In this document: positions 11,352 through 47,855 of the stretch, piece after piece | Numbering within the stretch: position 1 is the stretch's first letter | Layout: each line of letters opens with the position of its first letter | DNA from: Maricaulis sp. | Lineage (GTDB): Bacteria > Pseudomonadota > Alphaproteobacteria > Caulobacterales > Maricaulaceae | Assembly (NCBI RefSeq): GCF_048269565.1 | Contig: NZ_JBLXIK010000009.1 | Coordinates: forward strand, 12,487 to 76,486 | Direction: 5' to 3' | Length of the DNA stretch: 64,000 nucleotides | Translations under genes and position numbers: made by a program | The notes under the pieces: model-generated | Databases searched by the model: none | What the model saw: the letters and a program-made list of their open reading frames with translations, nothing else | What the model was told of the DNA's origin: nothing

Positions 11352-11392
11352 AGCCGCGCACCTCCCTTTCCGGGATGTGCGCGGTTCTGTTA
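11352..11392 (+). terminator. Terminator-like hairpin inside the 346-bp gpmA/kdsD divergent intergenic region
   Basis: CCGCGCAC (11354-11361) pairs perfectly with GTGCGCGG (11377-11384). An inner TCCC/GGGA extension is followed by TTCTGTTAT. It lies about 45 nt upstream of the kdsD ATG. Confidence 0.35.
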
Positions 11393-11432
11393 TGGAGGCG
11401 CATCCTATGCCCTCGCGATTCAGGAACCCGGC

Positions 11433-25694: not shown

Positions 25695-28268
25695 TCATGG
25701 GGTCGCATCGGGGTCGGCAATCGCCAGGTCGGACAGCACGATGCTGCCCGTCGCCGCTACCGCATACTCGGTCTCTGACGCCAGGGCGGCGGCCGGGAGA
25801 AGGTCGATCCGGAGCGTGCTGCTGCCGGGCTCGAAGGGGATGGTGGCGGTCAGGGTGATGATGTCGCCCTCGAGCGTGGCCGACCAGTCGTCCAGCCGCC
25901 CTCGGCGCAGGCCGAGGCCATCACCGTCTTCATTGGCGAGGAAATCAGAGCGGCCGTCAGGGTCTGTGGTGGTGATACGCAAGACGGGACGGCTCGTGTC
26001 GAGGCGCCGGAAGACCGCGGTGATCGTCAACGAGTGGGCATCGGAAGCCGGCAGGGCTGCCGCGTCCAGTTCGATATAGCTGGACTGGTAAGCGGTTTCG
26101 GATTCGTCGCGAAACAGAAGGCCGGAGGTGATCGGCGTGGCGCGTCCGTTCGACCAGATGGCGGGGTCCATCAGATTGACCACAGACGGCCTCCCGTCGA
26201 TCACTGCACCATCGCTGCGGGCCGGCATGTCGGTCGGACTGATCGCGGTGATGGGCCGGAAGACGTCGAGGATGGCGTCGTCAGCGACGACGAGCGCGCC
26301 GAGGCGTTCCGATCCGCGTTCACTGAGATGGCCGACATTGTAATAGGCTATCCGGCCGTCGAGCGTGCCGTGGCAGACGCCGTCCTGGCAGAGATGATCA
26401 TTGAAATCGACATAGCGGGCACCAGCGGCCTCGGCCACTTCGCGGATCGCGGCATTGACCCGGTCCGGCCGTGAGCGATTGATGACGGCGCGGGCACCGC
26501 AATCCATGAATGGCAGCCGCAACTGCTTGCGCTCGCAATCATGGTCGACGGCCTGCAATTGCGGCAAACGTCCGACCACCAGGACATCGACACCGCGCGA
26601 GCGCAGTTCGGTGATCGTGGCGCCAACCTCGCCGAGGAAGCGGTCGCCCCACTGATTGAAGTGGTTTTCCCAGTTCGCGGCCAGGATGACCGACGGGTAT
26701 TGGTCGAGCACTTCCAGAGTCGCGGCGATGGACTGGGCGCAACCGTCGGCGGTGCGTGGATTGGCGAATTCCGGTGCATGTTCCAGCAGGGGCGGGCAGG
26801 CCGAGTGCGCGATATTGCGGAAGCCGAAGCCGAGATGTTCCGCGATCTCGCGGATGGTGCCGACATAGTGGCCGGCATTGGAGTCGCCCCAGAGCAGCGC
26901 ACGTGGCTCGTTGATACTGTTGATGCGGCACGCCGGCAGCGTGACATCGTCATGGTCCAGATAGGGGCCCTGACAGACATAGCTCGCGGAGGTGCTGGGC
27001 AGATTGTCCTGCTCAAGCTGGGCGAGGCGTTGCGCATAACCGGCATTGAACTGCCAGAGCCCGAAGCCGTCCGTGGCGCGGATGCCGATTACAGCGACGG
27101 CCAGGCAGGCGGTGGGCAGCAGGAAATGGGTTGTGAATACACTCTTGAAACTGGCCCGGGTGCGGCGCAGCGGTCCTTCGACCCACAGGAAGGACATCCA
27201 TGACAGCGCCACCATGGCGAAGAAGGCCAGCGCCTGCTGCACCAGGTTGAGCTCGCCGATCACGTAGCGGGCGAAGGCGAGGACCGGCCAGTGCCACAGA
27301 TAGAGCGAGTAGGAGATCAGGCCGATCCAGACGAAGGGACGGAAGGTCAGGGCGCGTGACAGGGAGGAGCCACCCAGCGCCCCGGTCATCAGCAGCCCGG
27401 CCGAGCCCAGCGTCACGGGGATGGCGAGCAGGCCGGGGAAGGTCATGCTCTCATCGATCCACACAAGACTGGCGGCGATCAGCGCCATCGAGCCCCAGCC
27501 CATGGCTTCACGGGTCCAGCCCGGTACCGGGCTGATCGTCTCGGGTTGGCGCACGAGGAAATAGCACAGGGCGCCGGCCAGCAATTGCCCGGCGCGGGTC
27601 GGCAGCATGTAATAGGCGGTCATCGGCGCTTCCGGCGCGATCAGCTGGGCTGCGATGAAGCTTGCCGCTGCGACCAGGACCAGCACGGCGACCAGGATTC
27701 GGTTGAAGCGGAAGGCGCCGATCGCGGCCAGCGCGAGTGGCCAGAGCAGGTAGAATTGCTCCTCCACGCCCAGCGTCCACAGGTGCAGCAGCGGGTGCAG
27801 GGCGGAATCATCGGCAAAATAGCCGGTGTCGATCGAGAACAGGAAATAGAAGTTGGCGACGGAGAGCTGGGAGGCCAGGGCGCTGAAGGCCAGGTCCAGC
27901 ATGTCTTCGGGCAGGAAGAGGAATTGTCCGACGACCAGGCAGCTCAGAAGAACAGCCGATAGCGCCGGCATGATCCGCCGGATGCGGCGCCGGTAGAATT
28001 CGGTGATCTTGAAGGTTCCGCGGGTAATTTCCTGCGCGATATTGCCGGTAATCAGAAAACCGGAAATGACGAAAAAGATATCGACACCAATGAAGCCGCC
28101 GGGCACCCAGCTCTTGTCGATGTGGAACAGAACGACCGAGAGTACCGCCAGGGCGCGGAGCCCGTCGATATCTGCCCGGTAACCTTCGCGGACTGTCGCG
28201 AGTAGCTTCATTTGCCGTTGCCCAGATGATAGTAGTGGAAAATCATGCGATGAAAGCTTCATGATCAT
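25695..28268 (-). CDS. Second AT3-SGNH O-acyltransferase paralogue with the same extra C-terminal domain
   Basis: 857 aa with the same architecture: DIDGLRALAVLSVVLFHI...GVDIFFVISGFLITG; LLWGDSNAGHY; NVGHLS. It shares a 50-nt perfectly identical DNA patch with the neighbour. The start could instead be the ATG at 28211 (MKLLATV...). Confidence 0.85.
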   Translation of the reverse strand: MIMKLSSHDFPLLSSGQRQMKLLATVREGYRADIDGLRALAVLSVVLFHIDKSWVPGGFIGVDIFFVISGFLITGNIAQEITRGTFKITEFYRRRIRRIMPALSAVLLSCLVVGQFLFLPEDMLDLAFSALASQLSVANFYFLFSIDTGYFADDSALHPLLHLWTLGVEEQFYLLWPLALAAIGAFRFNRILVAVLVLVAAASFIAAQLIAPEAPMTAYYMLPTRAGQLLAGALCYFLVRQPETISPVPGWTREAMGWGSMALIAASLVWIDESMTFPGLLAIPVTLGSAGLLMTGALGGSSLSRALTFRPFVWIGLISYSLYLWHWPVLAFARYVIGELNLVQQALAFFAMVALSWMSFLWVEGPLRRTRASFKSVFTTHFLLPTACLAVAVIGIRATDGFGLWQFNAGYAQRLAQLEQDNLPSTSASYVCQGPYLDHDDVTLPACRINSINEPRALLWGDSNAGHYVGTIREIAEHLGFGFRNIAHSACPPLLEHAPEFANPRTADGCAQSIAATLEVLDQYPSVILAANWENHFNQWGDRFLGEVGATITELRSRGVDVLVVGRLPQLQAVDHDCERKQLRLPFMDCGARAVINRSRPDRVNAAIREVAEAAGARYVDFNDHLCQDGVCHGTLDGRIAYYNVGHLSERGSERLGALVVADDAILDVFRPITAISPTDMPARSDGAVIDGRPSVVNLMDPAIWSNGRATPITSGLLFRDESETAYQSSYIELDAAALPASDAHSLTITAVFRRLDTSRPVLRITTTDPDGRSDFLANEDGDGLGLRRGRLDDWSATLEGDIITLTATIPFEPGSSTLRIDLLPAAALASETEYAVAATGSIVLSDLAIADPDATP

Positions 28269-28563: not shown

Positions 28564-31500
28564 ATGTGCCCGCGGCATGTGCCGGACAGGGGTTTCCCGG
28601 CAGAATGGAATGACGACGCAATTATGCAAAACTTTCTGACCCGTATTCTTGGACTGCTGTCGCAGTGGGCGGGCTTCCGGTCCGCCCTCCTCAAATTTCT
28701 CGAGGGTCCGGACGGGCAACCGGTTTTCGACCAGGCGGTAACGGCCGATCCCGAGCGGGCGGCCACCCTGCTGGCAAGGTCCGCGCGTCTGCCCCGCGCC
28801 GCAGATGTGTCCGGCCTTGCAGATGCGGTGATCGATCATGCGTCTGACGGGGTCCTGGCGCATGCGCTGCAGGCCCGGATGTCGGCGACCGGTGCGGTGC
28901 CGCCCGAACTGGCCAGCCCCGAATTCGTCAAGAGCCTTGTGAGCAGTCCGGATTTTGCGGCCCAGCTCGCCCGCCAGGCCGGCCGGCCGGCGATGGTCGA
29001 GGCCATGCGCGCGCGCATGGAAGCGGACATGGCCTTCACCTGGCAGCTGGTGAATGACCGGGTCCTGAAGAATTTGAGCGAGGCCAGCCGTTTTGACGCT
29101 GTCGCCGCGGACAGCCTGTCGCGACCGGCCGTCCGCGATGCCGTCAAGCTCCGCCTGGCCAGCGATGCCGCCTATGCGCGCAGCGTGCTGACCCGCGATC
29201 AGATGATGGCTGTTTGCCATCATCCGGTTTTCCTCGAAATTGCCGCGAGCTGTATCGATGACCCGGTGCTTGTCGAAGCGGCTTCCCGCCGCGCCGAGCA
29301 GGATCCGGCGATCGCCCGCAGCCTGATCAGCCTCGGCGCGCTGCGTCATCTCGTCGATGGTGAGGATTTCCGCACCCTCGTCGCAGAGCGTCTCGATAGC
29401 CCTGCGATCACGCAAATGGTCACGGCCCGCCTCGCAACGGACGCGTCCTACCGCGCAGCAACGCTGGACCAGGGCGTTTATGATGCGGCGCGGGAGGATG
29501 CCCTGTTCCTGGCGACCGCCGCCGGCATGATTGGCGCTGCGCCGGTCGTCGAGGCTGTCCGGAGCGCCGCGAAGGGCGATCCCGACTTCGCACGGTCGAT
29601 CATTTCGCCGAAGGCGCTGGCGCTTATCGCCCGCGACGCGGTCTTCCTCGATGCCGCTGCCGCGGTGACAGGCGAGGCAGCCATGGTTGCCGCCGTGCGC
29701 CAGGCCGCGCAGGACGATGCCGGATATGCGCGTTCGATCATGTCACCGGAGGCGCTCGCCGGGCTGTCATCCGAGCCGGACTTCATCGAGCTGGCGGCCG
29801 GGCTCGTCGGTGAAGAGCCTCTGGTCGATGCGGTCCGGGCGGCCCTTGGTGCCGATGCAGATTATCGCTCGCGCATTATCGATCCGGGCCTGCTCGAGCA
29901 CCTGCGCGAGATGCCTGCCTTCCGGAAACTGGCAATTGCGGAAATCGGCAGTGATGATCTGGTCAAGGCCATCCGCGCGGCGATTGAAGCGGACGGGGAC
30001 CTGCGCGATCGCATCGTGTCCCGGACGACGCTCAAGGCGATGGCGGATTCCAAGGCTTTCGTCGAGCTCGCGGCCGGACGGATCGCTGCCGATCCGATCG
30101 TCGATGCCATCCGCCGGCGCCTGCTGGAAAATCACCGCTATCGCGACCGGATTCTGGACCCCGACATCCTGCGTGCGGCCACAGAGGGGGCCGCGCTCGG
30201 CCCGCTGTTGTCCGACCGTCTTGATGATGACCAGGTACTGACAGTCATCCGTGATGCGGTCGCCGGGCGACCGGGCTTTGGCGATCAATTGCTTGATGAG
30301 CGGACAGCGGATCTCGTTGCCGGTCACGCGTCCATCGAAGCCAGGGCCGGCACGCTGATTAGAAAACCGGTGTTCCGACAAGCGGTTCGCGCCGCGCTGC
30401 TCGAGGATGCAAGCTATAGCCGTGGCCTGCTGGACGAGGCAGTTCTGGGCAAGGCCCGCGACACGATGGCCTTCGTGGCCGTGGCCGCAGGCTCGATCCG
30501 CGCCACCGGTGTCCAGTCGGCGATCCGGCGCCTGATGACCGGCGATGCGGATTATGCGCGAGGGCTGCTGACCGAAGCGATAATCGAGTCGATTGCCGAC
30601 GACGATATGGTGCTCAAGCCGGCTGCGCGTCGCATCGCCGGCGATGTCCTGATCGCGGCGGCGAAACAGGCGCTGCACGATGACGAGCGATATGTCGCCC
30701 GGATACTGACCACCGAAGTGTTGAAGACCGTGGCCGATCACGAATCCTTCCTGAAATCGGTCCCGAACCTGCTTCGCGTCGGCCGCTTCAGAAACAGTGT
30801 GCAGGCGGCCCTGGGCGAGGAGCCGGCCCTGGCCGCGAAGCTTGCCGGTTCACCGGCGGTGCTCTCCAACCTGCTGGACCAGCCGTGGAAGGGAAAGGGC
30901 AAACTGCTCGATTTCACCGGACGCGCGGCGCATGTCTGGCGGTCGCTGGAGCGCCTGTATGGCAAGGAAAGGCTTGAGGAACTTGCCTCTCCTGTGCCAA
31001 TGCCCGAGCGTGGTTTCGGCCACGAGACCGATGTGCGCGATTACATGCTGGAGCGGCTGTGCGAGGGCGACGTCATGCGCCTGCCCCACGCCGAGATCGA
31101 GTTCATCGATCGCCGTTCGCTCTGGACCCTGGTCAATGAGATCCTGATCGACGAGGAATATTATTTCCACAGCGACAAGTCGGACCCGGTGATCCTCGAT
31201 TGCGGTGCCAATTTCGGGATGTCGACGACCTATTGGAAATTGCTCTATCCGGACGCGCGGGTCACCGCCTTCGAGCCGATCAAGGCCTATGCCGACCTGA
31301 TCCGCGCAAACGCGAAACGCAATAATTTCCGCGATGTTGTCGTGCATACCGCGGCCCTGTCGAACCATGGCGGACAGGAGACATTCTTTGTCTCCGAAGA
31401 CCATTCCATGGCTGGCTCGCTCACCGAGCGGCGGACCGCCTTTGGCGACACGATTCACGAAATTACGGTCGATACCGTGCGCCTCAGCGAATACATCACA

Positions 31501-31806
31501 GGCCCGGTCGATTATCTCAAGCTCGATATCGAGGGTGCCGAACCGATGGTGCTGGCCGAGATCGAACACAAGCTCAAATGGGTCGATCAGCTGACCATGG
31601 AGTGGCATATCGATCCGGACAAGACTGCGGACGGACTCTCCGAGGCGCTGAGCCTGCTGGAACGCGCCGGTTTTGCCTATGGCGTGTCCAAGTCATACAA
31701 TTATCTGCGGGCAACTTCCCATCGTCCGATTTCGCATATTGCCGGCGTCGGCACGTTCAACGTCTGGGCGATCAAACGCGAAAGCCTGGAACGCCTGCGC
31801 GGATAG
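28564..31806 (+). CDS. Large repeat protein: 15 x 46-aa helical repeats fused to a C-terminal FkbM-family SAM methyltransferase
   Basis: 1080 aa, with an alternative ATG at 28624. Residues from about 860 to 1080 carry the FkbM pattern VILDCGANFGMST...VTAFEPI...FFVSE...LKLDIEGAEPMVL. Residues 63-752 are a strictly periodic repeat array. Confidence 0.8.
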   Translation: MCPRHVPDRGFPAEWNDDAIMQNFLTRILGLLSQWAGFRSALLKFLEGPDGQPVFDQAVTADPERAATLLARSARLPRAADVSGLADAVIDHASDGVLAHALQARMSATGAVPPELASPEFVKSLVSSPDFAAQLARQAGRPAMVEAMRARMEADMAFTWQLVNDRVLKNLSEASRFDAVAADSLSRPAVRDAVKLRLASDAAYARSVLTRDQMMAVCHHPVFLEIAASCIDDPVLVEAASRRAEQDPAIARSLISLGALRHLVDGEDFRTLVAERLDSPAITQMVTARLATDASYRAATLDQGVYDAAREDALFLATAAGMIGAAPVVEAVRSAAKGDPDFARSIISPKALALIARDAVFLDAAAAVTGEAAMVAAVRQAAQDDAGYARSIMSPEALAGLSSEPDFIELAAGLVGEEPLVDAVRAALGADADYRSRIIDPGLLEHLREMPAFRKLAIAEIGSDDLVKAIRAAIEADGDLRDRIVSRTTLKAMADSKAFVELAAGRIAADPIVDAIRRRLLENHRYRDRILDPDILRAATEGAALGPLLSDRLDDDQVLTVIRDAVAGRPGFGDQLLDERTADLVAGHASIEARAGTLIRKPVFRQAVRAALLEDASYSRGLLDEAVLGKARDTMAFVAVAAGSIRATGVQSAIRRLMTGDADYARGLLTEAIIESIADDDMVLKPAARRIAGDVLIAAAKQALHDDERYVARILTTEVLKTVADHESFLKSVPNLLRVGRFRNSVQAALGEEPALAAKLAGSPAVLSNLLDQPWKGKGKLLDFTGRAAHVWRSLERLYGKERLEELASPVPMPERGFGHETDVRDYMLERLCEGDVMRLPHAEIEFIDRRSLWTLVNEILIDEEYYFHSDKSDPVILDCGANFGMSTTYWKLLYPDARVTAFEPIKAYADLIRANAKRNNFRDVVVHTAALSNHGGQETFFVSEDHSMAGSLTERRTAFGDTIHEITVDTVRLSEYITGPVDYLKLDIEGAEPMVLAEIEHKLKWVDQLTMEWHIDPDKTADGLSEALSLLERAGFAYGVSKSYNYLRATSHRPISHIAGVGTFNVWAIKRESLERLRG
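28750..30819 (+). repeat. In-frame tandem array of 15 units of exactly 138 nt (46 aa), with no indels between units
   Basis: Counted by hand. Units start at aa 63, 109, 155, 201 ... 707. The core is 13 clear units at 29026-30819. Approximate consensus: D-[AP]-x-[YF]-x-R-x-[IL]-[ILM]-x-P-x-x-L-x-x-L-x-x-x-P-x-F-x-x-L-A-A-x-x-[IV]-x-x-x-P-[ILV]-V-[DE]-A-[IV]-R-x-A. The units are diverged at DNA level. Confidence 0.85.
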
Positions 31807-31947
31807 GGGCAATGCTGTGTCCGACTGCGCAAATCACCCGAATGGGCGTTCCAAACCGGCCAAAAATTGCTACAAGCAGTGGCATTGATCAACTAGCTGA
31901 TCGGTCGTGAGCGCGGGTTGGCTCAAGTCTATTTCCGGGAGTTCGAA

Positions 31948-32517
31948 ATGTCCGACGTGAACCATGCCTGGCTTGGTGAGTATTTCAACAAGTACCAAGG
32001 CCTGATGTTCGATGAGCAGGTCTATGACAAGCTGTTGGAATTTCACAAGCTTTGCCTGAGCGTCCGCGAGCGTGGCGGCAAGCTGATGTTTGCCGGAAAC
32101 GGCGCCAGCGCCTCGATTTCCTCGCATGGCGCCGTCGATTTCACCAAGCAGGGACGCGTTCGGGCCGTCGATTTCAACGAACCCAATCTGATCACCTGCT
32201 TCTCGAACGATTTTGGCTATGAAAACTGGATCGCCAAGGCGGTCGAATTCTACAGCGATCCGGAAGACGTGCTGGTCCTGATTTCCGTCAGCGGCAAATC
32301 ACCAAATGCCGTCAAGGCCGCCGAATACGCCAAGTCCAAGGGCATCCCGATTGTCGCTTTCACCGGCTCCGGCGCTGACAATCCGCTGCGCGCCATCGCC
32401 GACATTGATTTCTGGGTTGAGAGCCGCGCCTACAATATCGTCGAGTGTATTCACATGGGCTGGCTCATGGCGGTTGTCGACATGCTGGTGGGCCGGGCCG
32501 AATATCCTGTGACCTGA
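31948..32517 (+). CDS. SIS-domain sugar-phosphate isomerase (GmhA/phosphoheptose-isomerase-like)
   Basis: ATG at 31948 is preceded by GGGAG. GGKLMFAGNGASASISSHGAVDF...VLVLISVSGKSPNAVKAAEYAKSKGIPIVAFTG is the SIS signature. GC is visibly lower than in the flanks. Confidence 0.75.
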   Translation: MSDVNHAWLGEYFNKYQGLMFDEQVYDKLLEFHKLCLSVRERGGKLMFAGNGASASISSHGAVDFTKQGRVRAVDFNEPNLITCFSNDFGYENWIAKAVEFYSDPEDVLVLISVSGKSPNAVKAAEYAKSKGIPIVAFTGSGADNPLRAIADIDFWVESRAYNIVECIHMGWLMAVVDMLVGRAEYPVT

Positions 32518-32572
32518 TAAAACTCCAAACCCGTCATCCCATTAGCGGTGCCGGGCGATTGAGGGGGGCGAC

Positions 32573-33454
32573 GTGTTATCCTGGAGTTCGGATATTTCGC
32601 ATCTGGAGCGGCTCGTGAGCTATCTCCGGGTGAGGCGCGCGCGGGCGCGGTATTTCGAGACGCTGCGTCTCGATCTCGGCAAGGGTTTTCCTTTTACGTC
32701 GCGCGACCCCGGATATCAGGGCCGCATTGCGAGCCTGTGGAACAAGCACAAGGGCAAGCGCGGCTTTGTGCTCGGCAATGGGCCGAGCCTGGGCCAGATG
32801 GATCTGACCAAGCTCAAGGATGAGGTCACGATCGGGTCGAACGGTATTTTCCTGAAATTCGAGGAAATGGGTTTTCACACCACCTATTTCACGATGGAGG
32901 ATATCCAGCAGGTTGAAGACCGGCGCCACCAGCTGGCGAAGGTGAAGGGCCCGACCAAGATTTACGGGCTGCACAACTCCTATGCGATCAAGGATGTCGA
33001 TGAGGACACGCTGTTCGCGAATGTCGCGGTCGACAGCTATCCGACGAAAAACCGTTGGCGGGAGCATTATCCGGGCTTCTCGACGGATTTTGCCAATATT
33101 GTCTATCTCGGCTCGACCATCACCTACATCAATCTCCAGCTGGCCTTCTTCCTCGGTCTCAACCCGGTCTACATCATCGGTTGCGATCACAGCTATGGTC
33201 CGCTGGCCAAGGCCTATCCGCCGGGCAAGATCCGGATCACACCTGAAGTCTATGAAATGCTGAAGGAAGCGCATTTCATCAACAATTACCATAAGATCGG
33301 CGGCACGTTCGGCATTCCCTACGTGTCCTACCAGGAAGAGGCGTATCAACGAGCGCTCGATGTGTTCCGCGACTCCGGCCGTGAAGTGTTCAATGCGGGC
33401 GAGAATTCGAAGCTCGACATCTTCCCGCGCGTCAAATTTGATTCCCTGTTCTAG
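32573..33454 (+). CDS. DUF115/MptE-like (Maf / GT42-sialyltransferase-like) putative CMP-ulosonate-dependent glycosyltransferase
   Basis: 293 aa, GTG start after GAGGGGGG. GFVLGNGPSLGQMDLTKL matches the GNGPSL motif I recall from DUF115/Maf proteins and CstII-type transferases, followed by IIGCDHSY. The region is low in GC. The assignment rests on motifs only. Confidence 0.55.
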   Translation: MLSWSSDISHLERLVSYLRVRRARARYFETLRLDLGKGFPFTSRDPGYQGRIASLWNKHKGKRGFVLGNGPSLGQMDLTKLKDEVTIGSNGIFLKFEEMGFHTTYFTMEDIQQVEDRRHQLAKVKGPTKIYGLHNSYAIKDVDEDTLFANVAVDSYPTKNRWREHYPGFSTDFANIVYLGSTITYINLQLAFFLGLNPVYIIGCDHSYGPLAKAYPPGKIRITPEVYEMLKEAHFINNYHKIGGTFGIPYVSYQEEAYQRALDVFRDSGREVFNAGENSKLDIFPRVKFDSLF

Positions 33455-33472
33455 AATTCAAAGCGAGTTCCG

Positions 33473-34762
33473 ATGCGAATCGTCCACCTGACCTACACAC
33501 TCCGCGGCGGCGCCGGCACAGCATTGCGACGCCATCATGAGGCGTTGCGCGAAAAAGGCATCGACTCCCAGATCGTGGTCGGCGAGGCGGTGAAGGGGGA
33601 TACGCCCTATATTCACTGTCTCAAGGATCTGGTCGAAGTGCCCGAAGCCAAGGCGCGGGCGTTTGAAGCGCTGGCGCGCCGGCATCAGAAGCGCGACGGC
33701 AGCGGCGATCTTTGGGCCAGCCCGGAAAGCTTCGGGCTCAAGGATACCGAGCTTGTGCGGGCGGCCGATATTTTCGAGGTACGCCAGCTGCATGCCGGTG
33801 GTCACCGCCCCTTCTTCAACTTCCGCGCCCTGCGCGCCATTGCGCGTGAGAAACCCGTCATCTGGCGCCTGTCGGACATGTGGGCCTTCACCGGTTATTG
33901 TGCCTACTCGCTGGATTGCGAGCGCTGGCGTGAGGGTTGCGGTCCGTGTCCGCAGCTCACGACCGAGCCGGAAAAGGCCGAACTGCGCCGTCCGGACCGG
34001 GATAATTCCGCCATCATGTGGAATGCCCGGCGCAAGGCGTTCCAGGGCGTGCCCTTCCATATGGTTTTCCCGTCCGAATGGCTGCTCGAACAGGCCCGGG
34101 TCAGCCTGCTCAAGGATGCCGCCTCCTTCACCCATATTCCCGTTGGCGTGGACCCGAGCGTGTTTCGGCCGGCAGCGCGGCAGGCCAATCGCGCGCGGCT
34201 CGGCATTTCCAAGGCGAATTTCGTGATCTCGGCCGTACTCTCGAACTCGAAGAACCATCGCAAGGCCTTCGATCTGTTTGCCGATGTGGTGGGGCGCCTG
34301 CGCGAACGCCAGCGCACGACACTGGTCATCGTCGGCAATGTCGGTGAGATCGAAGGGCATCCGGCCTTTGAGGGGCTCCAGATCGTCAGCCCGGGTTATG
34401 TCGGCGACGAGGCCGAGCAGGCCGGCATTCTGTCGACCGGGGATGTCTTCCTCTTCCCGTCACGGTGTGACAACTCGGCCCAGGTTCTGCTTGAAGCCGG
34501 GGCCTGCGCCTTGCCGACCGTGTGTTTCGATGTCGGCGGCAATGCGGAATACGTCAGGGAAGGCGAGACCGGCCGGGTGATCGAGCCCTTCGACATGGTC
34601 GCCATGTCGGCAGCGGTGCAAGCGTATCGCGATGATCCGATCCTGGCGAAAGCGCACGGCAAGGCCGCGCGCCGCTTCATGGATCAGGAGTGCTCGGTCA
34701 AGCTGCAGCGCCAGCGCTTCCAGAAGCTGTACGCGACTGTTCTTGCGGGCGGGGCGAGCTAG
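33473..34762 (+). CDS. Glycosyltransferase, GT-B fold (GT4-like)
   Basis: MRIVHLTYTLRGGAGTALRRHHEAL... N-terminal domain. C-terminal part has the GT4 E-x7-E-like region: FLFPSRCDNSAQVLLEAGACALPTVCFDVGGNAEYV. Confidence 0.8.
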   Translation: MRIVHLTYTLRGGAGTALRRHHEALREKGIDSQIVVGEAVKGDTPYIHCLKDLVEVPEAKARAFEALARRHQKRDGSGDLWASPESFGLKDTELVRAADIFEVRQLHAGGHRPFFNFRALRAIAREKPVIWRLSDMWAFTGYCAYSLDCERWREGCGPCPQLTTEPEKAELRRPDRDNSAIMWNARRKAFQGVPFHMVFPSEWLLEQARVSLLKDAASFTHIPVGVDPSVFRPAARQANRARLGISKANFVISAVLSNSKNHRKAFDLFADVVGRLRERQRTTLVIVGNVGEIEGHPAFEGLQIVSPGYVGDEAEQAGILSTGDVFLFPSRCDNSAQVLLEAGACALPTVCFDVGGNAEYVREGETGRVIEPFDMVAMSAAVQAYRDDPILAKAHGKAARRFMDQECSVKLQRQRFQKLYATVLAGGAS

Positions 34763-36182
34763 CCACCGGCGTCGCCGATAGGTCACTCAACGCTTCAGGC
34801 TCCGGTGCTCCCGGCAGCAGTCCGGACTCGGCCAGGCAATGCTTTAGCGTCGCGACAAAGGCTTCGTCCGACAGGCGGCGTTTGAAATATTCCTGCGCCC
34901 GGGCCGCATACTCGTCATAATTCTGGTCGAGCTCGTCGAAGGCCGCCACGAACGAGTCGTAATTGTTCGGTTCATAGGTCAGGCCAACCCGGTTGGCTTC
35001 GGTCCGGAAACCGCAAACGCCGTAGGACGGGAAGATTACCGGCTTGCCGAAGGACATAACCTGACGCCAGACACCGCTGGTGCGGGCATGGTCCCGATAG
35101 GCCAGCGGAATGTAATGGGCGTCGCGGAACAGCCGGTCGATGAATTTCTGGGATCCGCAATAGGTGCTGAACTCCAGCAGCCGGTCGTCCTCGATCAGCT
35201 TTTCGCGGGCGCGGACCTCGCGCCAGTTGAGGACCTGATAGCCCGGCTTGATGCGGCCGAGGCGGACCAGGATGAGGTCTGGCCGGTCGGCCACGAGCCG
35301 GAGCAGGAAATCGAAGCCCTTGCGCACTTCCAGATCGCCGAACAACAGCACGATCTTCTTGCCCTTGTGGCGGCCCTTCCACTGCTGGTAACGGCCGGCC
35401 AGGCGTTTGTAGAGCGTGGTCTCTTCCTCGGTGAGGACTTCTTCCGGCTCGTAATGTCCGACCTCTTCGATAAGGTGGACCCGACCGGTTTCCGTGTGGC
35501 GCTGGGCGTAGACGTCGTCGGAGGCCAGGATGCCGTCAAGATAGCCCGGCTCGACAAGCAGGTGCTCATAGATCACCCCGCGCAGCCAGTGGCGGCGGTC
35601 ATTGAGCTGCTTGAAGCGGCGCTCGGCGAGCGTCCGGCGGTAGAGGTAATCATAGCGGATGAAGACACCGTAGGTATTGCCGATGAATTTCGGCTTCCCG
35701 GCGCGGCCCTGGGCGAGGAAGGTCTCGAGCATTGCGTCGCCATCCATGAAGAAGGTCGCCGCGATGTCCTCGTTCTTCTGGTATTCCACGATCATCTCGA
35801 GCTCGGATGTCGCCGTCGGCATTTGCTTGCGCAGGCTGACGACACGAACATTCTCGAGATCACGAATGCCCTTCATGCTCGGGGATGTGAAATCCTTCCA
35901 GGTCGCCTGGGTCGCATCGTGCAATAGCCATTGCAGCGAGGTTGCATCCTGTTCGCCGCAATAGACGACATGGACCTCGAAGCCGAGGGCGTGCAGCGCA
36001 TCGGCAAAGCGGGCGGCATAGAGATGCCGGTGACCGCCCAGATGGCTGGAATAGATCATGACGCGGCGGGATGTGGGTGCACTCGAAGCGCTGCTGGACA
36101 CGCGGCCGTATTTGACCCGCAGCCCGAACGCAACGACCTTGGAGATCAGGTCATTGACCACATTCACATTTTCTAGATTCAT
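34698..36182 (-). CDS. Divergent GT-B-like protein (putative glycosyltransferase), function unknown
   Basis: 494 aa. The C-terminal half reads KKIVLLFGDLEVRKGFDFLLRLV...MSFGKPVIFPSYGV, like a GT-B C-domain. The N-terminal half was not recognisable. It lies on the opposite strand to its neighbours, and its 3' end overlaps the preceding GT4 gene by 65 nt. Confidence 0.55.
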   Translation of the reverse strand: MNLENVNVVNDLISKVVAFGLRVKYGRVSSSASSAPTSRRVMIYSSHLGGHRHLYAARFADALHALGFEVHVVYCGEQDATSLQWLLHDATQATWKDFTSPSMKGIRDLENVRVVSLRKQMPTATSELEMIVEYQKNEDIAATFFMDGDAMLETFLAQGRAGKPKFIGNTYGVFIRYDYLYRRTLAERRFKQLNDRRHWLRGVIYEHLLVEPGYLDGILASDDVYAQRHTETGRVHLIEEVGHYEPEEVLTEEETTLYKRLAGRYQQWKGRHKGKKIVLLFGDLEVRKGFDFLLRLVADRPDLILVRLGRIKPGYQVLNWREVRAREKLIEDDRLLEFSTYCGSQKFIDRLFRDAHYIPLAYRDHARTSGVWRQVMSFGKPVIFPSYGVCGFRTEANRVGLTYEPNNYDSFVAAFDELDQNYDEYAARAQEYFKRRLSDEAFVATLKHCLAESGLLPGAPEPEALSDLSATPVASSPRPQEQSRTASGSAGAAA

Positions 36183-36239
36183 ACCGCTCTCGACCTGATT
36201 ATCCCTGTCATCGCCCCATACTACACATCAAGCCGGGGC

Positions 36240-37224
36240 TCAGCCAGATATGCGGTCGTTCGGCCCCCTGCCGCCGACACTGTTGGCGAGATACCACTCA
36301 TAGGCATCCGCCAGCCCTTCGCGGAACCCGATCGAGGGCTCCCAGCCAAGGCTGCGCAGCCGCGAGACGTCGAGCAGCTTGCGTGGCGTCCCGTCCGGCT
36401 TGCTGGTGTCCTTGCGCAATGAACCCTCAAAGCCCACGACGTCCATCACGAGCCGGGCGAGGTCATCAATGCGAATGTCCTCGCCGGTGCCGACATTGAC
36501 GTGTTCATCGCCGGAATAGACCTTGAGCAGCGTCACGATCGCATCGGCGCAATCGTCGGCGTGCAGGAATTCCCGCCGCACCGAGCCGCTGCCCCAGATC
36601 TCCATGGAGTCGGCCTTCGCCATTTTTGCTTCATGAGCCTTGCGGATCAGGGCTGGAATGACGTGCGAGGACTGCAGGTCATAATTGTCGAACGGACCAT
36701 AGAGATTGGTCGGCATGGCCGAGATGAAGTCGCACCCGTGCTGCCGGCGGTAGGCCTGGCACAATTTGATGCCGGCGATCTTGGCCAGCGCATACCATTC
36801 ATTGGTCGGCTCGAGCGCGCCGGTGAGCAGCGCGCCCTCCTGGATCGGCTGGTCGGCGAATTTCGGGTAGATGCAGGATGACCCCAGCAGGATCAGCTTC
36901 TCGACACCGACGCGGTGAGCCGCCTCGATGATGTTCGCTTCGATCATCAGGTTGTCATAGAGGAAGTCAGCCGGGTAGTGGTCATTGGCGAGGATGCCAC
37001 CGACTTTTGCTGCGGCGACTATGACCAGTTCCGGACGCGCATCCGCCATCCAGGCGCGTGTGGCCTGCTGGTCGCGCAGGTCGACCGACTTGCTGCCAAC
37101 GGTGAGCAGTTCGCCGGGCGCCTCGCGCTCAAGGCGCCGGACCACGGCCGAGCCGACCATGCCGCGATGGCCGGCGACCCATATCCGCTTTCCCTTCAGC
37201 GAACAGTGGGAGGGGAAATCGGGA

Positions 37225-37250
<26 letters not shown>
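36240..37250 (-). CDS. fcl: GDP-L-fucose synthase (GDP-4-keto-6-deoxy-D-mannose 3,5-epimerase/4-reductase)
   Basis: [20 protein letters not shown]...AAAKVGGI...GSSCIYP...[15 protein letters not shown] are canonical Fcl/WcaG motifs. Confidence 0.9.
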
Positions 37251-38295
<1,045 letters not shown>

Positions 38296-38774: not shown

Positions 38775-39512
38775 TTGGGTCAACCGGCCATTCAACTCGT
38801 GAGACGGGATATCCGCGCACAATATGCCGGATCGGGGCTCGGACTTTTCTGGGCCTTGCTCGAACCGCTCATCCTGGCCGGGGCGTTCATCTTTCTGCGC
38901 CATTCCGGCATGATCACGATCGGCGACATCACCTTGCCCTATGCGGTCTACGCCGTCACGAGCCTGATGGTGTGGCAGACCTGTGTCGACGGCATCAATG
39001 GCGGTCTCAATTCGATCACCCGGATGCGGCCATTGCTGAAGACGACCCAGGTGTCGGCTGGCTCGGTGGTCTCGGTCGTCATCCTGACTTCCTGCTTCTT
39101 CCATCTTTTCCGGCTCGTCGTCGCGCTCGGGGTGGCGATTGCCTTTGGCATCCATGACCCGGTCAATCTGCTCGCCTACGCCCTGTTTTCATTCCTGGCC
39201 CCGTTGTTCGGAGTCGCGATCGGCCTGTTGCTGGCGCCCTTCGCGGAGATATACCGGGATCTCAAGATTCTGGTTTCCTCTGCTCTGCGCCCGCTTCTCT
39301 TCGTGTCCGGCGTCATCATCCCCATCCCGGCCCAGTTCGGATTTCTGGGGATTTACAATCCCATCGCCGTGGCCATTTCCACCGCCCGTGATGCGCTTGT
39401 CGGCGTGGGGCGGGTGGATTACGTTCTGGCCGGGCTCTGGCTCGCCATCATGATCATTGTGTTCGCAGTCGCGCTTTTCGTCTTCCGGCGTACACTCAGA
39501 ATTGTCCTGTGA
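38775..39512 (+). CDS. wzm: ABC-2 type polysaccharide export permease (Wzm/KpsM-like)
   Basis: 245 aa. VRRDIRAQYAGSGLGLFWALLEPLILAGAFIFL is the ABC-2 N-terminal signature, followed by about 6 TM segments. Only TTG (38775) or GTG (38799) starts are possible after an in-frame TGA. Confidence 0.8.
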   Translation: MGQPAIQLVRRDIRAQYAGSGLGLFWALLEPLILAGAFIFLRHSGMITIGDITLPYAVYAVTSLMVWQTCVDGINGGLNSITRMRPLLKTTQVSAGSVVSVVILTSCFFHLFRLVVALGVAIAFGIHDPVNLLAYALFSFLAPLFGVAIGLLLAPFAEIYRDLKILVSSALRPLLFVSGVIIPIPAQFGFLGIYNPIAVAISTARDALVGVGRVDYVLAGLWLAIMIIVFAVALFVFRRTLRIVL

Positions 39513-39524
39513 GATCCTCCCGAT

Positions 39525-40988
39525 ATGCCGATCATTTCTGCCACTGGAATATCCAAGAAATATTCCCTTCGAGACCAGCAAACACGCCGCCGCGGCCTGG
39601 GCGCCCTGTTCCGCGAGATTGTCGGTCCGACTGAGGGCGACTCGGCATCGGTCGCGCTGTCCGAGGGGGAGTTCTGGGCCCTGCGCGATGTCGATCTGAC
39701 GGTGTCCGATGGCGAGACGCTGGGCGTGATCGGCCTCAACGGTGCCGGCAAGACGACGCTGATGAGCCTGCTGGCCGGCGTGATCAAGCCGGACACGGGC
39801 AGTGTCGTGCACAATGGTGATGTGCAGGCTGTGCTGAGCCTCGGGGCCGGCATCAACCAGAAACTGACCGGGCGCCAGAACGCCGAAAGCGGTGTCGCCC
39901 TGCGGGCGAGTTCCATCGAACAGCGTGAGGAAATGATCGCGCGAATCGAGGAATTTTCCGAACTCGGCGAATTCTTCGACAGTCCGGTCGGCTATTATTC
40001 CAGCGGCATGAAGGCGCGGCTCGGTTTTGCCATCTGTATCAGCGCCACGCCGCAGGCGATCCTGATTGATGAAGCGCTCTCGGTCGGGGACGCGTCCTTC
40101 AAGCAGAAATGCCTGCTCTATCTTGAGCAATTGCGCCGCCGCGGTGTCGGCATGGTGATGGTGTCCCATTCCATGACCTCGATCCGGCAGTTCTGCGATT
40201 CCGCGATCTGGGTCCATGACGGCCAGATCCGCGCGCGCGGATCGAGCGGCGAAGTCGTGCATGAATATCTCCAGTTTGTGGAGCAAAGGCAGACCAGCTC
40301 GCTGGCAACGCCCGCGCCTGCCAGGGATGGCAATGCCGCACCGGTTGCCCGCAGCGGCACGCGGGCCGAGCCGGCGGGCAGCAAGATCAAGAGCGTCATG
40401 GGAACGGCGTTCAACGCGGTGGACCGCCGGCCGTCCGTGCGGGCGCTCGGTCCGGTGGAGCGTGAACTGCATCTCTCGGGACAGCCCGGTGAGTGGATCC
40501 GGCCGGAAATCACTGCGACCGAGGTGAATGAATTATACGGGCGCCAACGCCCGGAACCCGGTGTCGCCGAATTCTCCGCCGCACTGCTGGTCAATGGCCA
40601 GCCCACAAACGAGGTGTGGCCGCATGAGAGCATGGAGATCGAGTATCGCTTCCGGCTGGCTGAGCCCGTCGGCAATCTCAACGTTTCGCTGGTGTTTCAC
40701 AAGGAAGGCAGCGGCCGCCTCGCGACCATCTCGACCCTGAACCAGGACTTGCTCAAGGACCAGAGCGAGGCCGGGGTGGTGCATTGCCGGGTGAGGATCC
40801 CGGACATGGTGCTCGCGCCGGGCAATTATGTCGTCACCATCTCGATCCATGACGGCAAGCCCTATCTGTGGCGGGATGTGATCCTGACTTTCCGCGTGCG
40901 GACCTCCGAATTGCTCACCTGGGGCGATATCAACCTGCCTTACAGCTATGAGGTCTATTCGACCATCGACGAAGCCGATGTCGAATAG
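39525..40988 (+). CDS. wzt: Polysaccharide ABC-exporter ATPase with C-terminal glycan-binding-type domain (Wzt-like)
   Basis: 487 aa. Walker A GLNGAGKTTL, signature YSSGMKARL, Walker B ILIDEALSVGD. After a Pro/Ala-rich linker comes a beta-rich domain of about 170 aa (ESMEIEYRFRL...LNVSLVFH...APGNYVVTISIHDG). It resembles my recollection of Wzt C-terminal domains in length and pattern. Confidence 0.85.
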   Translation: MPIISATGISKKYSLRDQQTRRRGLGALFREIVGPTEGDSASVALSEGEFWALRDVDLTVSDGETLGVIGLNGAGKTTLMSLLAGVIKPDTGSVVHNGDVQAVLSLGAGINQKLTGRQNAESGVALRASSIEQREEMIARIEEFSELGEFFDSPVGYYSSGMKARLGFAICISATPQAILIDEALSVGDASFKQKCLLYLEQLRRRGVGMVMVSHSMTSIRQFCDSAIWVHDGQIRARGSSGEVVHEYLQFVEQRQTSSLATPAPARDGNAAPVARSGTRAEPAGSKIKSVMGTAFNAVDRRPSVRALGPVERELHLSGQPGEWIRPEITATEVNELYGRQRPEPGVAEFSAALLVNGQPTNEVWPHESMEIEYRFRLAEPVGNLNVSLVFHKEGSGRLATISTLNQDLLKDQSEAGVVHCRVRIPDMVLAPGNYVVTISIHDGKPYLWRDVILTFRVRTSELLTWGDINLPYSYEVYSTIDEADVE

Positions 40989-41027
40989 GGCCGCGGCCAG
41001 GCCAGCGCGCCGCCCGGGGAGTCGTTG

Positions 41028-42242
41028 GTGAAACTGCTCGTGTTGTCCCATGCCGCAGATCGGACCGGCGCGCCGCGGAGCGCGTTGCTGCTGGCCCGGG
41101 AATGGGCCGCGATGGGGCTTGATGTCGAAATCCTGCTGCGCCGGGATGGCGTTCTTAGGCCCGCATTCGAGGCTGTGGCGCCCACCGCGATTTACCGGGG
41201 GCGGCCGGAATTCGGCCCGGGGGACGTCCTTCCTCTCCTGCGCGATTACGATCCTGGCATGGCTTTGAAGTGCCTGCGTAATCCTGACCGGCCCTATTGC
41301 CTCTCCCGCAACGAACGGCGGGATGCCGCCGCGCTGGCCGCTCGCTATCGCGCCTGGGGCGCGCAGGCGATCTATGCCAACACCTCGCACTGCGCCGATA
41401 TGATCGAGCCTCTGGGTCTCGATTTGCCGGTCCTGACCCATGTCCGGGAGATGGCGCCCAGTCTCCGGGCGTTGGACCCCCGCCGGCGCGCCCATCTCCT
41501 CCATGGCGATGGCCCGGTGTTGGCGGTGTCCGAACGTGGCCGGGCCGACCTGGCGGAAATCGGTGTGGCCGCATCGCGCCTCGGGGTCGAGCCGCCGGCC
41601 GCCGCGGTGCCAGATCTTCAGGCGCTGGAGCGGCAACGCGACCGTGTCGAGCAGCAATTTGGCCTGGCGCCGGGCGACCGCCTGGTGGTCGGGGCCGGCA
41701 CGGTTGGTCCGCGCAAGGGTCCCGACCTGTTCATTGAAAGTCTCGGGCGAGCGATTGAAGCCGCACCTGCCGGCGAACGCATTGCCGGCCTCTGGCTTGG
41801 TGAGGGCGAGTGGCTGGATCCTTGCCGCGACCGCATCAAGGCGGCCGGGCTGGGCGATGCCGTCAGCTTCCCCGGGGCGATGGCGGATATCGCGCCGGTC
41901 CTGTACCGCGCCGACCTGCTGCTCTGCACCTCGCGCGAGGATCCTTATCCACGCGTGGTAATCGAGGCTGCCCTGGCGGGCACGCGGAGCGTCGCCTTCG
42001 CGGCGACCGGCGGCGCCGAGGAGTTCATCACCCGGTTCGATGCCGGCTCGCTGGTGCCCGCCTTTGATACCGGGGCCATGGCTGCCGCGATCACGACCGT
42101 GCTCAAGCGGCCGCACCGGTGTGACGCCGGCCTTGCCGCGCGCGTCGCTGCCGAACGCTCGGTCGAGCGCAGCGCCCGGCGCATTCTCGACCGGCTGCAG
42201 ATGCTGACAGGAGAGGCCAATGCCACGTCTGCTGATTCATAG
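41028..42242 (+). CDS. Glycosyltransferase, GT-B fold (GT4-like)
   Basis: GTG at 41028 lies 6 nt after GGGGAG (TTG at 41025 is also possible). VKLLVLSHAADRTGAPRSALLLA... N-domain. C-domain: LLLCTSREDPYPRVVIEAALAGTRSVAFAATGGAEEFI. Confidence 0.8.
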   Translation: MKLLVLSHAADRTGAPRSALLLAREWAAMGLDVEILLRRDGVLRPAFEAVAPTAIYRGRPEFGPGDVLPLLRDYDPGMALKCLRNPDRPYCLSRNERRDAAALAARYRAWGAQAIYANTSHCADMIEPLGLDLPVLTHVREMAPSLRALDPRRRAHLLHGDGPVLAVSERGRADLAEIGVAASRLGVEPPAAAVPDLQALERQRDRVEQQFGLAPGDRLVVGAGTVGPRKGPDLFIESLGRAIEAAPAGERIAGLWLGEGEWLDPCRDRIKAAGLGDAVSFPGAMADIAPVLYRADLLLCTSREDPYPRVVIEAALAGTRSVAFAATGGAEEFITRFDAGSLVPAFDTGAMAAAITTVLKRPHRCDAGLAARVAAERSVERSARRILDRLQMLTGEANATSADS

Positions 42243-43030: not shown

Positions 43031-43762
43031 ATGGCTAGCACGGGGGGCGTCAAGAACTACTATGTGTTCACGACACACAAAGCGGCGTCGAGATTTATTG
43101 ATGCCCTGATGAGGGACATCGCAATTGGAACTGGATTGGAGCTGCATGCCCCCAAACATCCGGGATTTCCACGCGAGAAAGAACTCGAGCGCGATCCAAG
43201 CAAGCTGACAGTAACCGGTTTGATCGGAACTTTGCGATACGCGTTCATGCCGCTGGACTGGGAAGATTCACATATCATGCTGCACCTGCGAGATCCGCGG
43301 GACGTGCTGGTGTCATTGTATTTCTCCCACAAATACTCCCACCGGCGGAGCAGTGAGGGCTTCAACCCTTCCTCTGACTCTTTGAATGAGTTGGACAAGG
43401 GGATTGATAACTACGTTATGTTCAGGGCGCCCCAGTATCTGGAGCGGTACAACTTCTATATCGAGAATATGCTCGGCAAGGAGAATGTGACCTTCTCGCG
43501 CTATGAGGACATGGTCATGGACTTCGAGGGCTGGTTGCCCCGTTTCCTCGAGCCCTATCCGCTGCGCAACCGCAAGGGTTTCATTGCCAAGCAGATGAAG
43601 AAGCGCGCGGCGCAGTTCGAGCTCGATGGCAGTGAGGATGTCACGGCGCACAAGCGCAAGGCCGTGCCGGGTGACCACAAGGAAAAGCTGGAGCCGGCGA
43701 CGATCGAGGCGCTGAACAAGATGTTCGCGGGGCCGCTCGCCAGCCTGCAATACGAAGTCTGA
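43031..43762 (+). CDS. PAPS-dependent sulfotransferase (Sulfotransfer_1/3-like)
   Basis: 243 aa. VFTTHKAASRF lies at the position of the 5'-PSB loop, and LRDPRDVLVSLYFS is a 3'-PB-type motif (RDPRD..VS). RBS GGAGAA. GC is clearly lower than in the flanks. Confidence 0.7.
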   Translation: MASTGGVKNYYVFTTHKAASRFIDALMRDIAIGTGLELHAPKHPGFPREKELERDPSKLTVTGLIGTLRYAFMPLDWEDSHIMLHLRDPRDVLVSLYFSHKYSHRRSSEGFNPSSDSLNELDKGIDNYVMFRAPQYLERYNFYIENMLGKENVTFSRYEDMVMDFEGWLPRFLEPYPLRNRKGFIAKQMKKRAAQFELDGSEDVTAHKRKAVPGDHKEKLEPATIEALNKMFAGPLASLQYEV

Positions 43763-43921
43763 CGGGCGCCGCACCCGGCTTGCTGCGGGGCATCCTGTAA
43801 TGGAATACCGGGTGGCTGCCCTGTGCGCCGGCCGCCCGGACGTGAAGTGGGAGTGCGCCCCGGCCGGACTTGCGCCGGGCCGGGGCGCCACCCTTTCCGA
43901 TCAGGCACCAGGGGGATACAG

Positions 43922-44620
43922 ATGAGCGTTGATGGCGAATACCTTTACCTTTTCAACCACATTCCAAAAACAGCCGGGACGGCGTTCAAGAAGTTCATCC
44001 TGAAGAATGTGGGTGAACAGCGCTTTCTGGACATCATCCATCCGGACAAGGCGAAGATCGACGAGACCCTGGCGGTCACGAATACCGGCGAGCTGAGCTG
44101 GATTTGCGCCAATTTTCACAAGAACCAGATCGAGGGGCTGCGCCAGTCTGACGGCCGGCCGTTGAAAATCGTTACCATGCTGCGTCACCCGGTTCAGCGC
44201 GGCATGTCGCTGTACCGCTTTGTCCGCAACAAGAAGTCCCACGCCCTGTACGAGACCATCTCGCGCATGGATATCCTGGACTTTGCGCGTGACGACGCGC
44301 TCGACCGGCAATTGTCGGAATATTACACGCGGCGCTTTGGCGGTGGTTCGATTGAGGCGGCGACGGCATTCCTCGAACAGGACAAGCTGGTGGTCGGGAT
44401 CACCGAAGAGATGAACGCGACGATGGCGGCGATCGCCGAGGCGACGGGTTTCGCCCAGCTTGAAGTCCCGCGCGCGAATGTTTCAAAGGAGTTTTCCGAA
44501 TTCGATGTCGACGGTGAGCGTGTCGCCGAGGCCACGCGGATCCTGACCGAAAAGAACCGGCTGGATATCGAGCTGTATGATCGTTACCGCGATGCCCTGT
44601 TGGCGTCTGTAGTTTCATAA
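43922..44620 (+). CDS. Sulfotransferase family 2-like protein
   Basis: ATG at 43922 after GGGGGA. LFNHIPKTAGTAFKKFI (the HIPKTAGT PAPS loop) and MLRHPVQRGMSLYRF (RHP..R..S.Y) are the family-2 sulfotransferase hallmarks. Confidence 0.7.
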   Translation: MSVDGEYLYLFNHIPKTAGTAFKKFILKNVGEQRFLDIIHPDKAKIDETLAVTNTGELSWICANFHKNQIEGLRQSDGRPLKIVTMLRHPVQRGMSLYRFVRNKKSHALYETISRMDILDFARDDALDRQLSEYYTRRFGGGSIEAATAFLEQDKLVVGITEEMNATMAAIAEATGFAQLEVPRANVSKEFSEFDVDGERVAEATRILTEKNRLDIELYDRYRDALLASVVS

Positions 44621-45744: not shown

Positions 45745-45787
45745 ACGGGCGATCGCCCGTCGCGTCACATTCCAGAAGGACAGGATA

Positions 45788-47823: not shown

Positions 47824-47855
47824 TCCATCATTCTATCTGAAGGCAGTAGCATCTC

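Follow-up and report, generated by a model that had tools for sequence, protein, structure and literature searches.

The known chain terminators of ATP-binding cassette (ABC) transporter-dependent glycan assembly, namely WbdD, WbbB, the Klebsiella pneumoniae O4 and O7 proteins and the Escherichia coli O101 methyltransferase, cap the non-reducing end of the polymer, and a coiled coil keeps the capping site apart from the polymerase near the membrane (PMC11231755, PMC3482155, PMC13168486). The coiled coil has been named 'a characteristic marker' of terminators and serves to recognise them bioinformatically (PMC11231755), and PMC13168486 agrees with the former. This one structural solution, the coiled-coil ruler, is at present the explanation for how chain length is controlled when O antigens and capsules are assembled through ABC transporters. 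A gene located at 28624..31806 (+) in a 64,000-nt stretch of Maricaulis sp. DNA (contig NZ_JBLXIK010000009.1; the whole stretch is called the window, and all positions are window-based) encodes a protein of 1060 amino acids (aa) in which an array of 46-aa repeats precedes a C-terminal FkbM-type S-adenosylmethionine (SAM)-dependent methyltransferase domain. We tentatively favour, at somewhat below an even chance, the reading that this protein is a chain-terminating O-methyltransferase of an ABC-transporter-dependent pathway, with a solenoid-like arm that takes over from the coiled-coil ruler as spacer or scaffold. The sequence data lend reasonable support to the terminator role, which is probable; the spacer or ruler role of the arm, argued by analogy, is plausible. 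The polymer is most likely an O-polysaccharide.

In the proposed mechanism, the FkbM domain would methylate the non-reducing terminal sugar of the undecaprenyl-linked polymer. The methyl cap would halt elongation and would also be the signal read by the carbohydrate-binding module (CBM) of Wzt ahead of export. The N-terminal 730 residues would be non-catalytic and would form an alpha-solenoid-like arm, presumably elongated and rigid, of 15 fixed-length units with four short helices each. A hydrophobic helix at the far end may dock the protein at the membrane or at the polymerase complex, and the arm would hold methyltransferase and polymerase a fixed distance apart. The original prediction, made from the DNA sequence, knew of no described ruler of a different kind; this agrees with the searchable open literature, which describes coiled-coil rulers only and in which no glycan terminator with a spacer other than a coiled coil was found. 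It is doubtful, although worth stating, that the protein represents a second structural class of rulers. Here a rigid array of short helices would replace the coiled coil, and the number of units would set the distance between polymerase and cap and hence the modal chain length. The sequence of the array could then change freely as long as its length is held, in units of 46 aa in Maricaulis and of 10, 20 or 40 aa in other phyla. If this is true, coiled-coil-based searches miss terminators, and the array is a naturally modular, integer-unit ruler with which the distance model could be tested and glycan length engineered. Maricaulis salignorans DSM 16077 is a cultured strain carrying the gene, which makes the idea directly testable.

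Among the described systems, WbdD of E. coli O8/O9a and K. pneumoniae O3/O5 offers the closest likeness. It belongs to a wzm-wzt locus with a CBM-bearing Wzt, and its slot directly after wzt is the one in which relatives of the window gene are found. Both proteins carry a methyltransferase at one end, a long non-catalytic helical region and, at the opposite end, a docking element, which in the window protein is a candidate only. The differences are substantial. The window protein has no sequence homology to WbdD, its fold is of the FkbM type, it has no kinase and its catalytic domain is C-terminal, so that the order is reversed. The spacer of WbdD is a trimeric coiled coil, whereas that of the window protein is an array of short helices broken by Pro, Gly or Asp every 7–14 residues, and the function of the latter protein is a prediction from sequence. 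Judged by homology, fold, domain order and the lack of a coiled coil, the Maricaulis protein and its relatives are to be placed outside the WbdD family. The family nevertheless fits a terminator system because of its genomic position, the CBM-bearing Wzt and the layout of catalytic domain, long helical region and conserved terminal helix.

WbbB of K. pneumoniae O12, ORF7-O4 and ORF6-O7 share the modular logic of terminator, spacer and polymerase or anchor, and in ORF7-O4 a TPR-like helical bundle accompanies the spacer (PMC11231755). All three retain a coiled coil, and their terminators are glycosyltransferases or methyltransferase-kinase pairs, whereas the window polypeptide contains neither a coiled coil nor a glycosyltransferase module. 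Vibrio cholerae O1 RfbT/WbeT (PF05575) and the FkbM-family enzymes (PF05050, 2py6) have the same SAM-dependent FkbM-like fold. RfbT acts on an ABC-transporter-dependent O antigen, whose non-reducing terminal sugar it methylates. Unlike the window protein, which scores below the PF05575 cut-off, it lacks a repeat arm, and neither export nor length control requires it. The arm itself recalls ARM, HEAT and PUF proteins, with their tandem all-helical units of 36–47 residues in strict register, and such proteins are structural neighbours of a relative's array in Foldseek. However, there is no profile match to these families, the window unit is predicted to have four very short helices where theirs have two or three, and TM-scores (template modelling scores) stay at 0.2–0.36. 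To our knowledge, no ARM, HEAT or PUF member is fused to a glycan-modifying enzyme.

An open reading frame (ORF) is present in the window at 28564-31806 (+), with a GC content at third codon positions (GC3) of 0.75, which is coding-type and as in the real genes of this 63% GC window. The upstream DNA and an alignment of orthologous proteins indicate that the true start is most likely the ATG at 28624, since the N-terminus MQxFLTRILG opens all orthologues, and two of them (L002 and L003) have no in-frame ATG further upstream. The length of 1080 aa proposed originally is thus to be corrected to 1060 aa, the earlier start at 28564 lying probably 60 nt too far upstream; residue numbers below follow the 1060-aa numbering. 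Selection constrains the whole gene, with a ratio of nonsynonymous to synonymous substitution rates (dN/dS) below 1 in every segment. The plasmid megablast search with the gene returned no match.

The repeat array covers aa 43-732 (28750..30819, +) and consists of 15 in-phase units of 46 aa. Autocorrelation of the protein sequence with BLOSUM62 gives peaks at lags 46, 92, 138, 184, 230 and 276 and at no others, and the lag-46 score within aa 43-732 is +0.86 versus −0.70 ± 0.08 in 500 shuffles (z = 20). A hidden Markov model (HMM) of the unit, trained on units 3-15, recovered 13 full units and, from outside the training set, a partial unit 2 (independent E-value, iE, of 1e-4), all at phase 0 and with no indel between units. 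Unit 1 is too degenerate and escapes the unit HMM. Hence, the periodicity, the phase and the coordinates originally reported for 15 exact units stand, while the count is better given as 13 solid units (units 3-15, 29026-30819, +) preceded by two degenerate N-terminal ones. The unit consensus is rich in Ala, Leu, Asp and Arg, with 1.3% Tyr and 0.1% Trp, and the arm is Ala-rich, with a net charge of −17 and modest hydrophobic moments. At the DNA level, neither TRF nor a direct-repeat search of the array found tandem or direct repeats, including any able to drive slippage or phase variation; since the repeats are invisible in the DNA, the array is old and diverged and not slippage-prone. An antisense ORF of 324 aa (29767-30741, −) lies within the repeat region and is coding-like in GC3 (0.75). 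Rather than being a gene, it most likely arises as a side effect of the Ala/Arg/Asp-rich sense frame in DNA of high GC content.

The array is flanked by three further segments ahead of the catalytic domain. An N-terminal hydrophobic or amphipathic helix occupies aa 1-26 (MQNFLTRILGLLSQWAGFRSALLKFL; 28624..28701, +), where AlphaFold places a helix at residues 2-26. The array is followed by an arm tail of short helices, aa 733-760 (EPALAAKLAGSPAVLSNLLDQPWKGKGK; 30820..30903, +; predicted helices at 734-741 and 744-752), and by a linker or cap region ahead of the Rossmann fold, aa 761-858 (30904..31197, +), common to all distant relatives. The linker aligns and is conserved across 20 relatives, whose query coverage begins there.

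The methyltransferase domain extends over aa 859-1018 (31198..31677, +). It matches PF05050 (FkbM) with 55.8 bits against a cut-off of 22.7 (E 8e-15) and TIGR01444 with 86.5 bits against a cut-off of 37.7 (E 2e-24). In its DCGANFG motif, D859, G861 and G865 are invariant among the 20 relatives. The AlphaFold2 predicted local distance difference test (pLDDT) score exceeds 90 for the methyltransferase domain and ranges from 75 to 97 for the linker and methyltransferase together, from about aa 770 onwards. Foldseek with the full-length model retrieved class I methyltransferases, including the FkbM structure 2py6, with E-values of 3e-5 to 1e-4, and recognised only the methyltransferase part. The original assignment of the C-terminus to the FkbM-type SAM methyltransferases is borne out by both profiles and by the fold prediction. 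The match to the RfbT family PF05575 is below threshold (17.1 bits versus a cut-off of 27.9); the relatives reach 24–25 bits. On these grounds the catalytic module is classed as an FkbM methyltransferase, and O-methylation of a sugar hydroxyl is predicted.

The repeat has the status of an orphan. An exhaustive phmmer search with aa 1-820 against 1.84 billion representative proteins retrieved one Maricaulis fragment and a spurious eukaryotic low-complexity match (P0002). The repeats had no Pfam match at E ≤ 1, the unit profile had none in the PDB at E ≤ 10, and in NCBIfam only TPR_END_plus appeared, at 20.5 bits against a cut-off of 32. A search of the PDB at E ≤ 1 matched no chain apart from chance V-ATPase hits, the structures of WbdD and WbbB being among those searched. 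Thus, no known family of unrelated function claims the unit above threshold in Pfam, PDB or NCBIfam, as the original prediction had expected. By these searches the 46-aa repeat appears to be a Maricaulis-restricted orphan and not a general element.

In the AlphaFold2 full-length model, built on an alignment with the relatives that has almost no depth over the repeats, the pLDDT of the repeats is about 50. This low-confidence model predicts about 3.85 short helices in each unit, with starts at unit positions 2, 11, 21 and 33-35, instead of the helical hairpin per unit first suggested. In the 13 solid units the predicted helices have a median length of 8 and a maximum of 14 residues, and their breaks recur at fixed unit positions. 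Short helices with fixed breaks are incompatible with a coiled coil, and the repeat period of 46 aa (10 aa in relatives) is not that of heptads; the non-coiled-coil character proposed for the arm was in this way upheld. When the array of a relative (P0012, aa 1-344) was folded alone, the model reached a pLDDT of 75–86 and contained 25 nine-residue helices in a strict 10-residue period. Its Foldseek neighbours in the PDB are CNOT9, APC-ARM, MO25, importin-alpha and PUF (TM 0.2–0.36, root-mean-square deviation 13–15 Å), and the modelled array loosely resembles ARM/PUF-type solenoids. A turn of an ARM/HEAT-like solenoid measures about 1 nm. If one unit equals one such turn, the 15 units would span about 15 nm. 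The N-terminal helix is 62–86% identical among orthologues and has a hydrophobic moment (muH) of about 0.5 and a hydrophobicity (H) of 0.25 in L002, the moment being not exceptional; the relatives open with basic amphipathic segments. From the model, we infer that aa 1-26 may be the membrane- or partner-docking end.

The gene belongs to a polysaccharide locus with an ABC exporter. Wzm, the ABC-2 permease (PF01061), is encoded at 38775..39512 (+), and the Wzt ATPase (PF00005 and PF14524) at 39525..40988 (+). The Wzt_C carbohydrate-binding module is at 40566-40925 (+; PF14524, 47.4 bits versus a cut-off of 30.4). Directly after wzt follows a glycosyltransferase of family 4 (GT4; 41025..42242, +; PF00534/PF13692), a candidate polymerase component. 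The original description of a Wzm/Wzt locus whose ATPase has a glycan-binding C-terminus is confirmed by the three exporter families. GDP-sugar genes, glycosyltransferases, Wzm and Wzt all lie within 10 kb of the repeat gene.

The distant relatives, found by a search with aa 600-1060, are 33–46% identical over the linker and FkbM region. Those of 455–718 aa have N-terminal extensions of tandem short helices with periods of 10, 20 or 40 aa and patterns such as D-x-x-h-h-x-x-h-L-x. The region before the linker measures about 30 to 450 aa in the relatives, and about 30 to 760 aa when all family members are counted. Across the wider family this region is always helical and repetitive, and its units are lineage-specific (10, 20, 40 or 46 aa). 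The feature common to the family therefore appears, from the sequences, to be a tandem helical array of variable length and not a common sequence. The unit HMM found no domain below iE 0.02 in the relatives, and neither homology between the 46-aa unit and the relatives' 10/40-aa units nor derivation of the former by stretching of a 40-aa (4 × 10) unit is demonstrable (hhalign probability 5%, BLASTP E = 0.09). Relatives P0012, P0005, P0004 and P0008 (loci L005, L010, L015 and L009) carry a strict decamer helix repeat, e.g., DPNFLLRIVR DQRTLDKILD, with super-periods of 20 and 40 aa, and this array seems to be undescribed in its own right. Matches to STI1/UBQLN1 were sub-threshold in P0004 and P0005 (23.5–24 bits) and in P0008 (17.9 bits; cut-off 27), as was the STI1-HOP DP match of P0012 (19.5 bits versus a cut-off of 29.1). 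These STI1/UBQLN matches, all below the cut-off, concern the relatives only and not the 46-aa unit.

The genomic position of the relatives is consistent. In all seven long-array relatives with enough flanking DNA, the gene is directly downstream of wzm-wzt, and a GT4 gene is often next. Wzt_C is present in the Wzt of six of the seven. The gene order wzm-wzt-wbdD-wbdA is found in E. coli O9a, and in Pseudomonas syringae a 'transport-elongation-termination' (TET) operon has been described (PMC7820976). The position of the relatives' gene corresponds to the slot of wbdD. The CBM of the window Wzt is 37–48% identical to those of the relatives, compared with 36–41% for whole Wzt. As a rule, the CBM of Wzt evolves far more quickly than the ATPase domain; on this premise, a CBM as conserved as whole Wzt suggests that the recognised cap or terminus is shared. 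The L007 locus is largely syntenic with the window (AT3-SGNH, gene, MptE-like, GT4), and its arm is only about 230 aa long.

The orthologues were collected by one scan each of species-representative genomes and metagenome contigs. Only four full-length orthologues were found, L001 with 78% identity and L002, L003 and L012 with about 60%; one of the four, also of 1060 aa, came from the metagenome scan. All five Maricaulis-clade versions, which represent two independent Maricaulis lineages, are exactly 1060 aa long with the repeats in the same register, and among these five there is no variation in repeat number. Identity between the lineages is 47% in the array, 88% in the protein's own C-terminal third and 72–96% in neighbouring genes, which makes the array the fastest-evolving protein segment of the locus. 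The dN/dS is 0.15–0.21 in the array versus 0.03 in the methyltransferase, and the former value means that the arm is under purifying selection. The window and L002 share 93% identity in the arm tail (row 16 of the unit matrix). Units 1-6 and 13-15 are one-to-one orthologous between the lineages. The salignorans lineage carries a three-unit duplication, in which units 7-9 match units 10-12 with 59, 67 and 46% aa identity; the duplicated units replace units without a counterpart in the window lineage, and the total number of units is unchanged. The evolution of the arm thus looks spacer-like: the sequence turns over and the length is kept.

Several observations weigh against a chain-terminating methyltransferase with a spacer arm. 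The Maricaulis gene does not adjoin wzm-wzt but lies 7 kb away, and the locus holds other possible terminators, namely the MptE-like transferase with the CMP-sugar pathway, two sulfotransferases and a second methyltransferase. One relative (P0014, in L011) has a Wzt-like ATPase of only 268 aa without a CBM, and there are short family members with almost no arm, e.g., the 322-aa protein of L004 (Desulfovibrio). With the window repeats modelled at a pLDDT of about 50 only, the elongated shape is presumptive, and the ARM-like matches to the P0012 array have low TM-scores. Per residue, moreover, a solenoid covers much less distance than a coiled coil does, which makes it an unexpected element for a pure ruler. 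The case for selection on length is thinly sampled, with two lineages only, and the constant length may result from solenoid packing and in-register gene conversion rather than from selection on reach. Finally, as V. cholerae RfbT illustrates, terminal methylation of the FkbM-like kind can occur without governing chain length or export.

Much of this would suit the main rival, which we hold to be rather unlikely: an O-methyltransferase that decorates internal or terminal sugars without terminating the chain, its array being a generic ARM/HEAT-style platform for protein-protein docking by which the enzyme is held at the glycosyltransferase/transporter complex. The MptE-like transferase with the CMP-sugar genes and the sulfotransferases are then available as terminators, the short-arm members and the Wzt without a CBM are accommodated, and in-register conversion would keep the length in the two lineages without selection. 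The weak PF05575 matches recall RfbT, whose methylation is dispensable for export (V. cholerae Ogawa/Inaba). Alpha-solenoids are typical interaction scaffolds, and the P0012 array resembles ARM proteins. However, the wzm-wzt adjacency in 7/7 relatives and the conserved CBM of Wzt point to a link with export recognition, and a docking platform should keep sequence-specific surfaces, yet the arm sequence turns over completely between lineages while its length is kept. It is improbable, too, that the array is a glycan-binding groove running along the nascent polymer, which would raise affinity or measure length by binding a set number of sugar repeats: the arm is poorly conserved between lineages whose sugar-biosynthesis loci are nearly identical, and its Ala/Leu/Asp/Arg-rich consensus, so poor in Tyr and Trp, is unlike sugar-binding surfaces. 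Such a groove would agree with fixed-length units in strict register and with the concave surfaces of ARM/PUF solenoids, which bind extended ligands. In WbdD, too, the non-catalytic C-terminal bundle is needed for recognition of the polymer rather than of a monosaccharide (PMC3482155).

A little less probable again is a localisation or chaperone-like module instead of a spacer, in which short amphipathic helices bind the cytoplasmic membrane or hydrophobic partners in an STI1/ubiquilin- or apolipoprotein-like manner. The pattern D-x-x-h-h-x-x-h-h is amphipathic and the relatives show the STI1/UBQLN1 and STI1-HOP DP matches given above; still, none of these reaches a family threshold, the window arm is negatively charged and Ala-rich with modest moments, and AlphaFold packs the P0012 helices together, which implies a folded core and not surface-lying helices. 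That the repeat region is functionless baggage or an annotation artefact is very unlikely. It is highly divergent and has no homologues in the 1.84 billion representative proteins, but its dN/dS, its coding GC3, a frame intact over 3.2 kb at identical length in five genomes and the analogous arrays in all long relatives speak for function.

The repeat gene leads a co-directional group, and downstream of it (31918..34762, +) Pfam matches identify a SIS_2 isomerase (31918-32517, +), an MptE-like/DUF115 putative transferase (32573-33454, +) and a GT4 glycosyltransferase (33473-34762, +); L007 has a similar set. These are followed by a GT1-like protein (34698-36182, −), a GDP-6-deoxyhexose reductase/epimerase (36240-37250, −) and a GDP-mannose 4,6-dehydratase (37225-38295, −); to judge from their families, the genes of 34698..38295 (−) would provide the backbone sugar and its transfer. 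Synteny with M. salignorans DSM 16077 (L002) extends over the whole arrangement, and the downstream trio has the same order and sizes there.

A set of genes at 45061-49525 and 31918-33454 comprises CTP_transf_3, a GFO/IDH/MocA oxidoreductase, Methyltransf_23, a 2-hydroxyacid dehydrogenase, an inositol-monophosphatase-family phosphatase, SIS_2 and MptE-like/DUF115. It looks like a pathway for a CMP-activated sugar, and this sugar could itself be the terminal residue. The set recurs beside FkbM relatives in the distant loci L005, L007, L004 and L011. The 322-aa form is identical in the Desulfovibrio metagenome-assembled genome (L004) and in an independent metagenome contig (L013), where it adjoins CTP_transf_3, carbamoyltransferase, Inositol_P and MptE-like genes and not wzt. 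An 845-aa ORF upstream of the L004 gene was considered as a separately encoded arm and rejected, having neither periodicity nor a Pfam match. The L011 locus also holds Capsule_synth/Glyphos_transf-like and radical-SAM genes, and the FkbM-arm family may also serve capsule or teichoic-acid-like polymers.

The regions 43031-44620 and 53532-56398 hold two sulfotransferases and, nearby, CysD and a CysN/CysC fusion (3′-phosphoadenosine 5′-phosphosulfate (PAPS) synthesis), with a sulfate-symporter-like transporter at 57287-59095. These genes suggest that the polysaccharide of the locus is sulfated. Two tandem paralogous AT3-SGNH acyltransferases of 841 and 857 aa (23097-25622 and 25695-28268, −) are divergent from the repeat gene, and an AT3-SGNH gene also adjoins the relative in L007. 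Upstream of the dTDP-rhamnose genes are a KdsD/KpsF-type SIS+CBS arabinose-5-phosphate isomerase (11208-12401) and a 433-aa pentapeptide-repeat protein (8338-9639, −).

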